A stretch of DNA of 64,000 nt from Legionellales bacterium (GCA_002707205.1 PAMH01000034.1:47337-111336), one strand, 5' to 3'. Positions 14,569 to 19,350 are shown, numbered from the stretch's first letter. Numbers and translations: made by a program. Notes: generated from the sequence alone by a model not told the origin.

Positions 14569-14584
14569 ATGACATTTTTGTCAT
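14569..14584. promoter_or_regulatory. 16-bp palindrome ATGACATTTTTGTCAT immediately upstream of a sigma70-like promoter (TTGCAA-18-TACAAT) for the first MOMP gene
   Basis: Perfect inverted repeat ATGACA-N4-TGTCAT. A near-identical site lies upstream of the fifth MOMP gene (19335..19350). Confidence 0.4.
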
Positions 14585-14756
14585 TTTGCACTTGCAAAAA
14601 CTTGAAATATGTAACTACAATACTAATCTATCTTTAAATAATATTTATATTATTTGGTAGGCATTTAACAATGCGTTAAATGTTTCGGAAGGTAATTCTC
14701 TGCGGACTCATGGTGAGTCCAATGTTGTACAACAAATTTTAGAGGAAATTGCAGCG

Positions 14757-15782
14757 ATGACTAAACGAATAACTTTAGCCTTAGCTATGATTGGTCTTTC
14801 AGCTTCTGCTTTTGCAGGTGCTCCAGGTAACCAAGTAGCAATGCCAACTGGCGTTAATTTAATTGCGCCTGATAGCGTTGGTGTATGGAGTTTCGGAATT
14901 GAAGCTTTATATGCTAAACCATCAAATAATCAGTTTCAGTATGGTCAATTAGTAACTGACCCAACTTCTGATTTTCCAAGTGTTAAAAACAAGTCAGTCA
15001 GTAGCGACCATGATTGGGGCGGTACAGTTGATATGACTTATATGTTCCCAGGAAGCAGCCGTGATGTAAAGTTATCTTACTCACACATTGATTTTAACAA
15101 TAGTAGTAATACCGTTGTTGGTGCTAACCAATTATTTGCATTACCTATCGGTGATTTAGATGATTTAGCAGGTGCAGGTGACACTGCTAAAGGTTCGCAA
15201 GATACTGATGTAGATGCGGTTGATTTAGTATTTGGTCAATGGATTCGTATTGGTCAGCGTGTAGACTTACACCCATTTGGCGGTTTACGTTATGCAGCGA
15301 TTGATACTGATGACAAAGGTACTTATACTGATATCAGCAATACTGCTGCAAATAACTTCCAAACTGCTCAATTCAAGAGCGATTTTGACGGTATTGGTCC
15401 ACGTGCTGGTGTAGATACAGCTGTACACTTAGGTTACGGTTTCTCTATCGTTGGTACAATGGCTGGATCTTTATTGATCGGTAGTACTGATAGCAAGTAC
15501 ACAACTTATAATCCTAACCTTACAACTGCATCAACTAATGTTTATAAGAGCGGTAGTTCAACAACAATCGTTCCTGAGTTAGATGCACGTATTGGCGTAG
15601 ATTATATGTATGCTTTCACGCCTGAAACTTCTATGAATGTTCAGTTGGGCTGGCAAGTTGTTAACTACTTTGATGTAACTAATACTGATGCAGTTGATAT
15701 CGCTGTTCCTAACACAGTAAATAACTCTGAAGACTTCGGTTACCAAGGTCCTTACTTAAGATTGCAAGTTAATCTTGCTTAA
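14757..15782 (+). CDS. Legionella-type major outer membrane protein (MOMP/OmpS family) paralog 1
   Basis: Signal peptide ending FAGAPGN; conserved blocks PTGVNLIAPDS, WGG, DLHPFGGLRYA, GIGPRAG, VPELDARIG, GPYLRLQVNLA shared by all five tandem copies. Confidence 0.85.
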   Translation: MTKRITLALAMIGLSASAFAGAPGNQVAMPTGVNLIAPDSVGVWSFGIEALYAKPSNNQFQYGQLVTDPTSDFPSVKNKSVSSDHDWGGTVDMTYMFPGSSRDVKLSYSHIDFNNSSNTVVGANQLFALPIGDLDDLAGAGDTAKGSQDTDVDAVDLVFGQWIRIGQRVDLHPFGGLRYAAIDTDDKGTYTDISNTAANNFQTAQFKSDFDGIGPRAGVDTAVHLGYGFSIVGTMAGSLLIGSTDSKYTTYNPNLTTASTNVYKSGSSTTIVPELDARIGVDYMYAFTPETSMNVQLGWQVVNYFDVTNTDAVDIAVPNTVNNSEDFGYQGPYLRLQVNLA

Positions 15783-15817
15783 TTAAGTTTTACCTACAAG
15801 GTAGTTAAGTTTATAAA

Positions 15818-15847
15818 CCGAGTATTGGTTTCAATACTCGGTTTTTT
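15818..15847 (+). terminator. Rho-independent terminator after MOMP paralog 1
   Basis: Stem CCGAGTATTG / CAATACTCGG with a 4-nt loop, followed by TTTTTT. Confidence 0.65.
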
Positions 15848-15923
15848 CGTTTTTAGGACGTTGTTTATATGCTTAAGAACTGGTAGGATAAATCATCGGA
15901 CTTTTTTAAATAAGGATATATTC

Positions 15924-16970: not shown

Positions 16971-17221
16971 AACCCATTAGCTTAATAACATACAATGCGT
17001 TGGTGGTATTGAAAGCCTCAACGCATTACATGACATTTAAAATGCGATGTACTTGAGTTTAATTATCAAAAAAATTATTGCTAATAATTTCTTTTCATTA
17101 ATTTATTATTTCAAAATTATTGATTGTAATTAGGTTATTCTAATTTTGATGAGATTGTGCAATGACTAGCTTTCTTATACAATGCTTGCTCTTATTGGAC
17201 AGAATCATTTAGGAAGTATTA

Positions 17222-18205
17222 ATGATGAAGAATTTCTCAATTATCATTGGAACATTATTAGCCGCTTCAAATTTATATGCTGGAAATACTGGTAATCAAG
17301 TTCAAGCACCCACTGGGGTTAGTTTACAAGCACCAAAAAGTGAAAGTGCTTGGTCATTTGGTATTGAAGCACTTTACATGAAGCCTAGTAATGCAACTTT
17401 TCAGTATGTGCAGATTTCAAATCAAAGCACGCCAACGCAGACACATCAAAATAACTCAGTGAATCCTAGTTCAGATTGGGGTGGCGAGTTTGATGCAACT
17501 TATCATTTTGCTGGTAATAGCCGAGATATCGAAGTTGCATTAATGAATTTAGATGTCGATAATACTGGCAGTACTCAAATACAAGACGGACAGATGTCTG
17601 ATCCTTTTGGTATTTCAAACCGATTTACAGATAGTGCAAATGCAGACATGGATAATAGTGTTGATGCAGTTGATGTTGTATTTGGTCAAACTTTTAAAAT
17701 AGGACCAGTAGTTACCATGCGTCCTTTTGGCGGTGTACGTTATGCCGATTTAGAAAGCAATAATGTTGCCCAATATTTTAATTCTCAAGCGAGTGCACCT
17801 GCCCAAGGCAATGGTAGAATAAATTCAGAGTTTGTTGGTTTTGGTCCAAGAGCTGGATTAGATGCAAGTTTCCATGTGAGTTCTCGTATTAGTGTTGTGG
17901 GAACAGTGGGGGCTTCATTGTTAGTCGGTGATATTGATACTAAATTGACAACGACAGCATATCAAGATAATCCGCAAATTATTGATAATAATGAGTCACG
18001 TGCGAGTGTGCCAGAATTGGATGCAAAGCTTGGTATTAATTATCAACAAAAGTTAAGTGCAAATAATTCACTTGATATTCAAGTTGGATATCAAGTGGTT
18101 GATTATTTCGATGTAATCAATAAAGACTTTATTGATGCATCAACTATTAACACAGTGAGCAACAGTGATGATTTGGGTTTTCAAGGGCCTTATATTCGTG
18201 CATAA
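17222..18205 (+). CDS. MOMP family paralog 3. It is truncated by a premature stop just before the C-terminal beta-strand and may be a pseudogene.
   Basis: Ends ...GPYIRA* where the paralogs have GPYLRLQVNLA. In frame after the TAA lies LNIV then a second stop, so the stop replaces a Gln codon. Confidence 0.7.
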   Translation: MMKNFSIIIGTLLAASNLYAGNTGNQVQAPTGVSLQAPKSESAWSFGIEALYMKPSNATFQYVQISNQSTPTQTHQNNSVNPSSDWGGEFDATYHFAGNSRDIEVALMNLDVDNTGSTQIQDGQMSDPFGISNRFTDSANADMDNSVDAVDVVFGQTFKIGPVVTMRPFGGVRYADLESNNVAQYFNSQASAPAQGNGRINSEFVGFGPRAGLDASFHVSSRISVVGTVGASLLVGDIDTKLTTTAYQDNPQIIDNNESRASVPELDAKLGINYQQKLSANNSLDIQVGYQVVDYFDVINKDFIDASTINTVSNSDDLGFQGPYIRA

Positions 18206-18241
18206 TTAAATATCGTTTAATCTTCAGACAAGGATGTAGTT

Positions 18242-19255
18242 ATGTATAAAAAAATTTCCTTAGCACTCAGTTTATTAACATTGTCTAGTCAAATTTTTGC
18301 AGGCCAGGTGGGTGATACAGTCATTGCACCAACGGGCGTTAATTTAATAGCACCAGATAGTCAAGGCGTATGGTCATTGGGTTTAGAACTCCTTTCAATG
18401 ACGCCTAATAATGTAAACTTTCAATATGCAACAGTAAGTAATAGTTCCATACCAACAGGAACAACACAAAACAAGTCCGTTGATGGTTCGCATAGCCTTG
18501 GTGGTACAATTGATCTTAGTTATGTCTTTCCGGGAAATGGACGAGACATACAAATTGCCTACACGCGTCTACATCTAACCGATAATGACAATGCAGTTTC
18601 AACTGCTGGCACAAGCAATACGTTAAATATTCCTTTTAGTAACTTAACCGTTTACGATAATGCTTCTGGTAGTGTTGATCAGGATTTAGATGCATTTGAT
18701 TTGCTATTTGGGCAGTGGATTCGTATTGGTTCACGTGTAGACTTACATCCATTTGCAGGCTTGCGTTATGCGCGAATTAAGCTTGATGATAAGGCAAATT
18801 ATACAGACAATTCTAACAATGCAAATTACAGTACAGGTAAAATTAAATCTGACTTTAGTGGGCTTGGTCCTCGTGCTGGCATGGATGTGGCTGTACACCT
18901 GACTTCTGGCATTTCATTTATCGGTACGGCAGGTGCCTCTATTTTAATTGGTAATTTGGATAGTAAAATAACGGGCAGTAATTATCTGAATGCACAATAT
19001 ATAGATGGTTATCAATATAAAAATAGTAATTCAACGCAAACTGTGCCAGAGTTAGATGCACGTTTAGGTGTTAACTATACTTATCGCTTTAATCCTGGTA
19101 CAGCACTTGGTTTGGAATTTGGCTATCAAGCGGTTACTTATTTTGATGTAATGGATACCGATTATATTGATACTTTGGCAGTAAACACCATCAATAATTC
19201 ACAGAATTTTGGTTATTATGGTCCATATTTTAGATTACAATTCTCGGTTGTTTAG
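18242..19255 (+). CDS. MOMP family paralog 4
   Basis: Same conserved blocks; GGA RBS 36 nt after paralog 3, so probably co-transcribed with it. Confidence 0.85.
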   Translation: MYKKISLALSLLTLSSQIFAGQVGDTVIAPTGVNLIAPDSQGVWSLGLELLSMTPNNVNFQYATVSNSSIPTGTTQNKSVDGSHSLGGTIDLSYVFPGNGRDIQIAYTRLHLTDNDNAVSTAGTSNTLNIPFSNLTVYDNASGSVDQDLDAFDLLFGQWIRIGSRVDLHPFAGLRYARIKLDDKANYTDNSNNANYSTGKIKSDFSGLGPRAGMDVAVHLTSGISFIGTAGASILIGNLDSKITGSNYLNAQYIDGYQYKNSNSTQTVPELDARLGVNYTYRFNPGTALGLEFGYQAVTYFDVMDTDYIDTLAVNTINNSQNFGYYGPYFRLQFSVV

Positions 19256-19334
19256 GCTAAAAGGTGATATACAAGCAGAGTTTTGTTTGTTAAATAAACA
19301 AAGTTGCTTTGAATGTAAACAGATTTTAAAAAAA

Positions 19335-19350
19335 ATGACAAATTTGTCAT
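19335..19350. promoter_or_regulatory. 16-bp palindrome ATGACAAATTTGTCAT upstream of a TTGTAA-18-TATAAT promoter for MOMP paralog 5
   Basis: Same ATGACA-N4-TGTCAT architecture and same position relative to the -35 box as the site at 14569..14584. Confidence 0.4.

Follow-up and report, generated by a model that had tools for sequence, protein, structure and literature searches.

The MOMP locus and its two palindromes

The DNA analyzed here, referred to as the window, is a stretch of 64,000 nucleotides from a Legionellales bacterium (GCA_002707205.1, PAMH01000034.1:47337-111336), in which two of five tandem genes encoding MOMP (major outer membrane protein) paralogs are preceded by the same palindrome, a putative operator. 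The five genes lie on the plus strand and comprise MOMP paralog 1 (14757-15782; 341 aa, PF05150 Legionella_OMP, E-value 2e-60), paralog 2 (15921-16970), paralog 3 (17222-18205), paralog 4 (18242-19255), and paralog 5 (19429-20445; 338 aa, PF05150 Legionella_OMP, E-value 8e-58). All of them matched PF05150 across their full length in Pfam, with E-values from 3e-47 to 6e-62, and they share 47-61% identity among themselves. The palindrome is present before genes 1 and 5 only. Since paralogs 2-4 lack it, any control exerted through this box would be paralog-specific.

The exact pattern ATGACA-N4-TGTCAT (ATGACANNNNTGTCAT) was matched twice in the window and nowhere else in it, as palindrome 1 (ATGACA-TTTT-TGTCAT, ATGACATTTTTGTCAT, 14569-14584) and palindrome 2 (ATGACA-AATT-TGTCAT, ATGACAAATTTGTCAT, 19335-19350), no strand being assigned to either; the core of both reads TGA-N8-TCA. 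The expected count was 0.02 per window, and two or more matches occurred in 0 of 100 dinucleotide-preserving shuffles, which bears out the view taken in an earlier sequence-only reading of this DNA that two perfect copies are improbable by chance in 64 kb. When up to two mismatches were allowed, six sites were found in the window against 4.7 expected, and degenerate copies were thus not enriched. A site with two mismatches at 59008, upstream of a second MOMP cluster, overlaps a stop codon and lacks the promoter geometry described below, and it was taken as a chance occurrence.

A promoter scan predicted a sigma-70 promoter on the plus strand behind each palindrome, TTGCAA-18-TACAAT for MOMP gene 1 (14592-14621) and TTGTAA-18-TATAAT for MOMP gene 5 (19358-19387), both being consensus-based predictions. 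At both sites, the palindrome is separated by 7 nt from the -35-like hexamer (TTGNAA) and by 31 nt from the -10 hexamer (TAYAAT). The sequence-only reading had described the palindromes, hexamers and 18-nt spacing accurately, the gap between palindrome and hexamer being 7 nt as measured here.

Conservation of the palindrome in related loci

Related loci were obtained by a protein search followed by contig look-ups, which yielded syntenic metagenome loci with the gene order pcnB-folK-MFS-miaA-MOMP cluster-dapB (individual loci are denoted by L numbers). The window itself, which belongs to a TARA Oceans metagenome-assembled genome, is 100% identical to TARA Oceans contigs (L021, L022), and its proteins carry the locus tags CMF49_075xx. 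The last MOMP gene of the syntenic loci shows 67-71% protein identity to gene 5. The exact palindrome was found before this gene 5-type ortholog in L012/13, L016, L017/18, L019, L020, L076, and L149, at 93-100 nt before the start codon, and it is followed by 7 nt, TTGTAA or TTGTTA, 18 nt, and TATAAT.

An alignment of eight distinct gene 5-type promoters was used to calculate mean pairwise identity. The value was 0.98 for the 12 arm positions, 0.43 for the spacer, 0.44 for the 60 columns upstream of the box, and 0.53 for the non-hexamer positions between the box and the -10, while the -35 and -10 hexamers reached 0.89 and 1.00, respectively. The sole arm substitution among the eight aligned orthologs was that of L015 (ATTACA...TGTCAT), and the spacers found in gene 5-type orthologs were AATT, AAAT, ATTT, TTTT, GAAA, AAAA, and AAGT. 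At the level of sequence comparison, these values demonstrate purifying selection on the arms, and the palindrome forms a clear phylogenetic footprint of the kind that base-specific recognition around a free A/T-rich centre would leave.

The clade sequence examined amounted to ~150 kb (the window, L012-L024 and L146-L150), and within it the exact motif occurred only upstream of MOMP genes. The one-mismatch occurrences were likewise all upstream of MOMP genes, save ATGACACACATGTTAT, which lies inside the MOMP gene of L024. The motif is therefore present in orthologous MOMP promoters rather than missing from them, and within this ~150 kb its exact form is not equally common in coding regions, the two points on which the sequence-only reading had proposed to be judged.

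The box varied in several loci. In L024 (2280-2345), it reads ATGACA-ATT-TGTCAT, with a 3-nt spacer and an otherwise identical promoter geometry, in a different gene neighbourhood, to which the box has travelled with its promoter. The gene 1-type box has partly decayed in orthologs, with one mismatch in L012, two in L020, arms 15 nt apart in L147, and no box in L015, and the hexamers and spacing of the gene 1-type promoter are the same in L012, L015, L020, and L147. The L147 arrangement (8740-8776; ATGACA, 15 nt, TGTCAT) adds roughly one helical turn. In both spacer-length variants, L024 and L147, the position of the promoter-proximal arm is unchanged.

The upstream regions of genes 1 and 5 are homologous to each other, with a common A-tract abutting the box and a shared block, AATAAACA, which is located 35 nt upstream of palindrome 1 (14526-14533, plus strand) and, as its counterpart, 34 nt upstream of palindrome 2 (19293-19300). 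The shared A-tract and AATAAACA block indicate that the two palindrome copies descend from one promoter that was duplicated with its gene. In relatives, this block stands 13 nt upstream in L012 gene 1, L016, and L017, and 35 nt upstream in L147. Its positions form two classes, about two helical turns apart.

Outside the clade, neither an exact nor a one-mismatch palindrome was found in the distant GTDB loci L001-L011 (~125 kb). A GTDB scan with the MOMP alignment returned distant MOMP loci only (≤48% identity), in which the motif is lacking; in true Legionella species (L008-L010), too, the MOMP promoters are without this box. Other dyads were observed in this material. In the distant Legionellales metagenome-assembled genomes L004 and L005, an FNR-like TTGAT-N4-ATCA occupies the equivalent slot ~100 nt upstream of MOMP genes, placed after an A-tract and ~10 nt before TTGTTT-18-TATTAT/TATGAT, and L001-L003 carry TGTAA-N8-TTACA, GTAATTT-N8-AAATTAC, and TTTGA-N8-TCAAA. 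It seems that an upstream operator slot is conserved in MOMP promoters and that its occupant changes.

Sequence match to the copper box

The published copper box of CusR and CopR is TGACA-N4-TGTCA. The CusR box of E. coli reads AAAATGACAAnnTTGTCATTTT and that at pcoE TGACAAnnTTGTCAT (PMC11195947, preprint), whereas the hiuH box common to HprR and CusR is CATTACAAAATTGTAATG (PMC9302797). The cusC box was confirmed in the E. coli MG1655 sequence and the hiuH box was read directly in E. coli sequence. In L. pneumophila, the copper-activated CusR homologue LciR binds ATTACAAnnTTGTAAT, and E. coli CusR is able to drive the Legionella lciE promoter (PMC6989116). A half-site variant, ATTACA, is used by L. 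pneumophila LciR (PMC6989116) and by E. coli HprR (PMC9302797).

Both window palindromes fit the inverted repeat AT(G/T)ACA - 4 nt - TGT(C/A)AT exactly, and the arm change in L015, from ATGACA to ATTACA, yields exactly the alternative half-site of the CusR/HprR/LciR family. Of the 20 positions specified in the 22-bp CusR box AAAATGACAAnnTTGTCATTTT, site 1 (14566-14587) shares 19 and site 2 (19332-19353) shares 17; this longer match adds little weight, as A/T flanks are to be expected in a genome rich in A/T. Novelty of the motif is not supported, since its sequence is that of the published CusR/CopR/HprR/LciR operator. Judged by sequence, the palindrome is already known and so is its operator class; what is new for the copper-box class is the target, namely major porin paralogs in a marine Legionellales clade, together with the promoter geometry.

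This geometry was compared with that of characterized copper-box promoters, the cusC and hiuH promoters being read from E. coli sequence with -10 hexamers of our own reading, and the lciE promoter being rebuilt from mutagenesis primers in the published supplement. Behind the box, both cusC and lciE have 7 nt, TCAC, 8 nt, CAGA, 10 nt, and a -10 hexamer (TAAAGT and TATTAT, respectively), and hiuH has TATCCT without the TCAC and CAGA motifs; from the end of the box to the -10, all three measure 33 nt. MOMP genes 1 and 5 and all their orthologs have 7 nt, TTGNAA, 18 nt, and TAYAAT. The 7-nt gap from the box to the first promoter-proximal element is thus common to the cusC, lciE, and MOMP promoters. 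As read from these sequences, the operator and its 7-nt offset are shared with copper-box promoters, but the promoter class is different, with a conventional -35 and a box 2 bp closer to the -10.

Assignment of the binding protein

Taken together, the MOMP promoters appear to carry a real, conserved operator. We give an even chance to the assignment that the palindromes are operators for a response-regulator dimer of the OmpR/PhoB type, from the CusR/CopR/HprR/LciR branch, or for a regulator that recognizes the same DNA and is encoded at another place in the genome. A CusR-type protein is thus a lead, the one with the best support, rather than a demonstration. The sequence-only reading had proposed a dedicated dimeric regulator of porin expression. 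Its dimeric part stands, given the invariant arms, the variable A/T-rich spacer, and the fixed distance to the -35 in eight promoters. Its dedicated part was not upheld, as the sequence matches CusR/CopR/HprR/LciR operators, which elsewhere control metal-resistance genes.

Several observations weigh against a CusR-type protein. The distance from box to -10 is 31 nt in the MOMP promoters versus 33 nt in cusC, hiuH, and lciE. The TCAC and CAGA elements, which are required for lciE induction (PMC6989116), are absent at the MOMP promoters, where TTGT/TTGC and ATTA/GAAA stand in their place, and these promoters have a -35-like TTGNAA of their own in the position of the TCAC of cusC and lciE. The genes downstream are PF05150 porins and not metal-resistance genes, so that the targets are not those of copper, silver or oxidant defence. 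In L. pneumophila, LciRS lies on a horizontally transferred island that only nine species possess (PMC6989116), and it is thus not a core Legionellales system. Moreover, a tblastn search with an E. coli CusR query, of which the first 48 residues were verified against MG1655, detected no OmpR-family regulator in any related locus, in the window, or in the 10 kb that flank it on the left.

The occurrence of the palindrome in unrelated taxa also counts against this assignment. A metagenome scan with the pattern box-7nt-TTG-(20-21 nt)-TANNNT returned at least 120 stretches. The following observations hold among the matches listed, which were mostly from unrelated organisms, two stretches being from this clade (L061, identical to window promoter 1, and L076). 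In unrelated taxa, ATGACA-N3/4-TGTCAT precedes TetR-family, helix-turn-helix (HTH)-S24, and toxin-like genes, a placement that, going by sequence position, suggests autoregulation. TetR-family genes with the upstream palindrome (3- or 4-nt spacer) were present in L049, L067, L093, L099, and L105, and a 219-aa HTH-S24 repressor with the upstream palindrome in L036, L038, L039, L047, L052, L081, L085, and L095. The 219-aa HTH-S24 genes, on low-GC metagenome contigs, always showed ATGACA-N3-TGTCAT, 7 nt, TTGAC(T/A), 17 nt, and TATAAT, and their box looks like an autoregulatory operator of an unrelated lineage. The palindrome is not diagnostic of one regulator family on its own. It is a recurrent solution for dimeric DNA binders, and this recurrence is perhaps owed to the resemblance of TGACA to the -35 consensus.

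No transcription-factor gene was adjacent to the MOMP locus in ~10 syntenic contigs, which suggests that the binding protein acts in trans. Pfam annotation of 38 open reading frames of the window, plus one precomputed hit, revealed only two regulators, a Fur-family gene (9773-10222) and an HTH-S24 protein (27175-27816). The latter, a 213-aa protein with HTH_3 and Peptidase_S24 domains (CI/LexA-like), was rejected as the regulator of the box: its own upstream palindrome, AAAGAGTA-ttt-TACTCTTT (27067-27085), is different from the MOMP box, and it is unrelated to the 219-aa S24 family that stands behind similar boxes in other taxa. It may be a prophage or island repressor, because LexA is reported to be absent from L. 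pneumophila.

Alternative explanations

The box could instead be the operator of a dimeric HTH regulator from another family (TetR, Xre/CI-S24, MarR or similar), possibly one that is truly MOMP-specific, which we consider possible but on the unlikely side. This would agree with the palindromes before TetR-family and 219-aa HTH-S24 genes in other taxa, some of which also show the box-7nt-TTG arrangement, a feature that was, however, built into the search pattern. Also in its favour are the 31 nt to the -10 and the missing TCAC and CAGA, unlike CusR-type promoters, and the restriction of the exact motif to MOMP promoters in the clade sequence. However, local repressors are normally encoded beside their target, and none of the syntenic loci has a regulator gene next to the box. 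Such operators usually overlap the core promoter, whereas no part of the box reaches into the -35; the sole HTH-S24 protein of the window, as mentioned above, has a different palindrome and is unrelated to the 219-aa family, and the ATTACA variant and the A/T-rich flanks fit the CusR family.

Explanations without a specific regulator fared worse. The box lies where an UP element would (-44 to -59), with A-tracts at its flanks, and the two upstream regions are homologous and share AATAAACA, so that the window copies are not independent events; an architectural promoter element (UP-element-like or based on curvature), or mere inheritance from duplication of gene and promoter, could be argued from this. 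We regard both as improbable. UP elements are A/T-rich without conserved symmetric G/C, but here conservation is highest in the arms, which contain G/C, and the A/T spacer and flanks have drifted. Inheritance alone cannot explain 98% arm identity versus ~45% at neighbouring non-coding positions, and seven or more independent lineages have kept the dyad symmetry. It is very improbable that the palindrome acts as a nucleic-acid hairpin, such as a weak terminator or a site at which transcripts reading through from the gene upstream are processed. The sites do fold at -5.3 and -10.9 kcal/mol (z-scores of -2.9 and -3.4 versus shuffled controls), and no obvious terminator is seen between MOMP gene 4 and site 2, which follows it. 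Yet the fold is weak, with a stem of only six largely A/T pairs, no T-run follows site 2, and site 1 lies in a divergent intergenic region, where an upstream transcript is not expected. Compensatory variation was not seen either, since ATTACA (L015), ATGACG (L012), and CTGACA/CGTCAT (L020) break the pairing. An Rfam search gave no matching family.

Other known elements were compared with the box and rejected. The FNR and CRP boxes (TTGAT-N4-ATCAA and TGTGA-N6-TCACA) have a TGA-N6-TCA core, and the core here is TGA-N8-TCA. The Pho box of PhoB consists of CTGTCAT direct repeats with 11-bp periodicity that replace the -35; the repeats here are inverted, and the next TGT-containing hexamer is 14 nt away. 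The ARG box of ArgR (TGAAT-wwww-ATTCA, usually tandem) has the same register and an A/T centre, but two of five bases differ per half-site and the box here is single. A divergent miaA promoter, or a -35 within the arms, was dismissed because a conserved -10 is missing at the required distance and no gene diverges from site 2.

Other features of the locus

Gene 1 has a 5' untranslated region (5'UTR) of ~130 nt and is followed by a terminator-like hairpin at 15815-15844. At 14704-14733, its 5'UTR contains a conserved hairpin, GGACTC-atggt-GAGTCC, and, 3 nt after this hairpin and ~20 nt before the ribosome-binding site, a perfect 10-bp palindrome, GTTGTACAAC; the arrangement is likewise found upstream of the first MOMP gene in L012, L015, and L147. 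The 10-bp palindrome is kept in four lineages, and the adjoining hairpin sequence co-varies. These 5'UTR elements could be an mRNA-stability element or a second operator. MOMP genes 3 and 4 are separated by 36 nt. Gene 5, with its own predicted promoter, is followed by a GC-rich hairpin and T-run (~20471-20497), and its short 5'UTR (19388-19428) is highly conserved in orthologs (GTTAT(A/G)TTTTTTTAATTAA ... AGGAAGGCAAATCATG).

The window encodes eight MOMP-family proteins. A second cluster contains three overlapping or adjacent Legionella_OMP paralogs (59200-60204, 60182-61132, and 61108-62010), and no copper-box-like site was found at this cluster (59200-62010). On the 3' side of the first cluster and of an unannotated 367-aa membrane protein, the region 22022-23749 carries a CMD-family gene and a TraI_2 (relaxase-like, PF07514) gene, which may be the remnant of an integrative element. 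The syntenic loci have dapB where the window carries this arrangement.

Proposed mechanism and relation to known systems

From the motif, its fixed geometry, the selection on its arms, and its copper-box identity, we infer the binding protein, the direction of regulation, and the signal as follows. If the protein is a CusR-type winged-helix response regulator, one monomer would read each half-site AT(G/T)ACA, and with half-site centres 10 bp apart both monomers would contact the helix from the same side. Placed directly upstream of the -35, the dimer would have its centre near -51.5, assuming a transcription start 7 nt after the -10, and would modulate the recruitment of RNA polymerase at two of the five tandem MOMP promoters. 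Activation would be favoured over repression, given imperfect hexamers (TTGTAA/TTGCAA) and a spacer that, at 18 nt, is over-long and suboptimal. Hindrance is also documented in this family, as CopR binds at pcoA2 without activating (PMC11195947). As a result, the composition of porin paralogs would change with a signal in the periplasm (characterized family members respond to copper, silver or an oxidant), and paralogs 1 and 5 would be signal-dependent against a background of paralogs 2-4 and the second cluster at 59200-62010.

That a metal-sensing two-component system controls a porin is not without precedent, as CzcR/CopR act on OprD in P. aeruginosa (PMC5083921). It is conceivable, if rather doubtful, that a copper- or oxidant-sensing CusR/HprR-type system is a core regulator in this marine/aquatic Legionellales clade, wired to specific porin paralogs through a box fused to the -35/-10 promoter 2 bp more tightly than in the canonical arrangement, and that the cell surface is remodelled on phagosomal or environmental copper.

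Among known systems, the E. coli CusR box (in the cusR/cusCFBA intergenic region, at pcoE, and, with HprR, at hiuH) has the same inverted repeat, A/T-rich flanks, a place upstream of the promoter, and is rare in the genome. The cusC and hiuH promoters have no -35, in contrast to the MOMP promoters with TTGNAA, and their targets are copper- or oxidant-defence genes beside two-component genes, whereas the MOMP targets are major porin paralogs with no regulator nearby. The LciR element at lciE, from the same bacterial order, resembles the MOMP box in its 6-7-bp arms, 4-nt spacer and place upstream of the promoter, and its ATTACA half-site recurs in L015; the heterologous activation of lciE by E. 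coli CusR shows that specificity is shared within the family. Unlike the MOMP boxes, the LciR site occurs once in the genome of L. pneumophila, lies on a horizontally acquired island, drives an effector gene, and depends on TCAC, CAGA, and a 33-nt distance to TATTAT.

The CopR and CzcR sites of P. aeruginosa and P. putida follow the consensus TGACA-N4-TGTCA or the hybrid CTGACAn5GTAAT, and there, too, a metal-sensing system alters porin expression. The control of OprD, however, is a repression that is partly indirect and needs Hfq, and OprD is a specific porin outside the Legionella_OMP family. EnvZ/OmpR at ompF and ompC is alike in concept, with an OmpR-family regulator just upstream of the -35 selecting porin paralogs. 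OmpR binds tandem direct repeats at several sites and not a single inverted repeat, and OmpR-type sites were not seen at the MOMP promoters. The sites of the BceR/GraR/VirR type in Firmicutes (AAGTGACA-N4-TGTCATTT upstream of the -35) are nearly identical to the MOMP box in palindrome and placement, but they belong to Gram-positive modules for sensing peptide antibiotics, with no phylogenetic link to a gammaproteobacterial metagenome-assembled genome.

Should the sensor not be of the CusR/CopR type, the box would be a well-supported but ordinary conserved operator. If it is of that type, a metal or oxidant signal would directly select the major porin paralogs displayed by a bacterium of intracellular lifestyle, and organisms that escape cultivation would gain a simple testable cis-element. 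Protists and macrophages are known to use copper as a phagosomal weapon, and water systems are treated with it against Legionella. In L. pneumophila, a CusR homologue is coupled to an effector gene, and this theme would be extended if, in a sister clade, the dominant surface protein had a conserved link of this kind.

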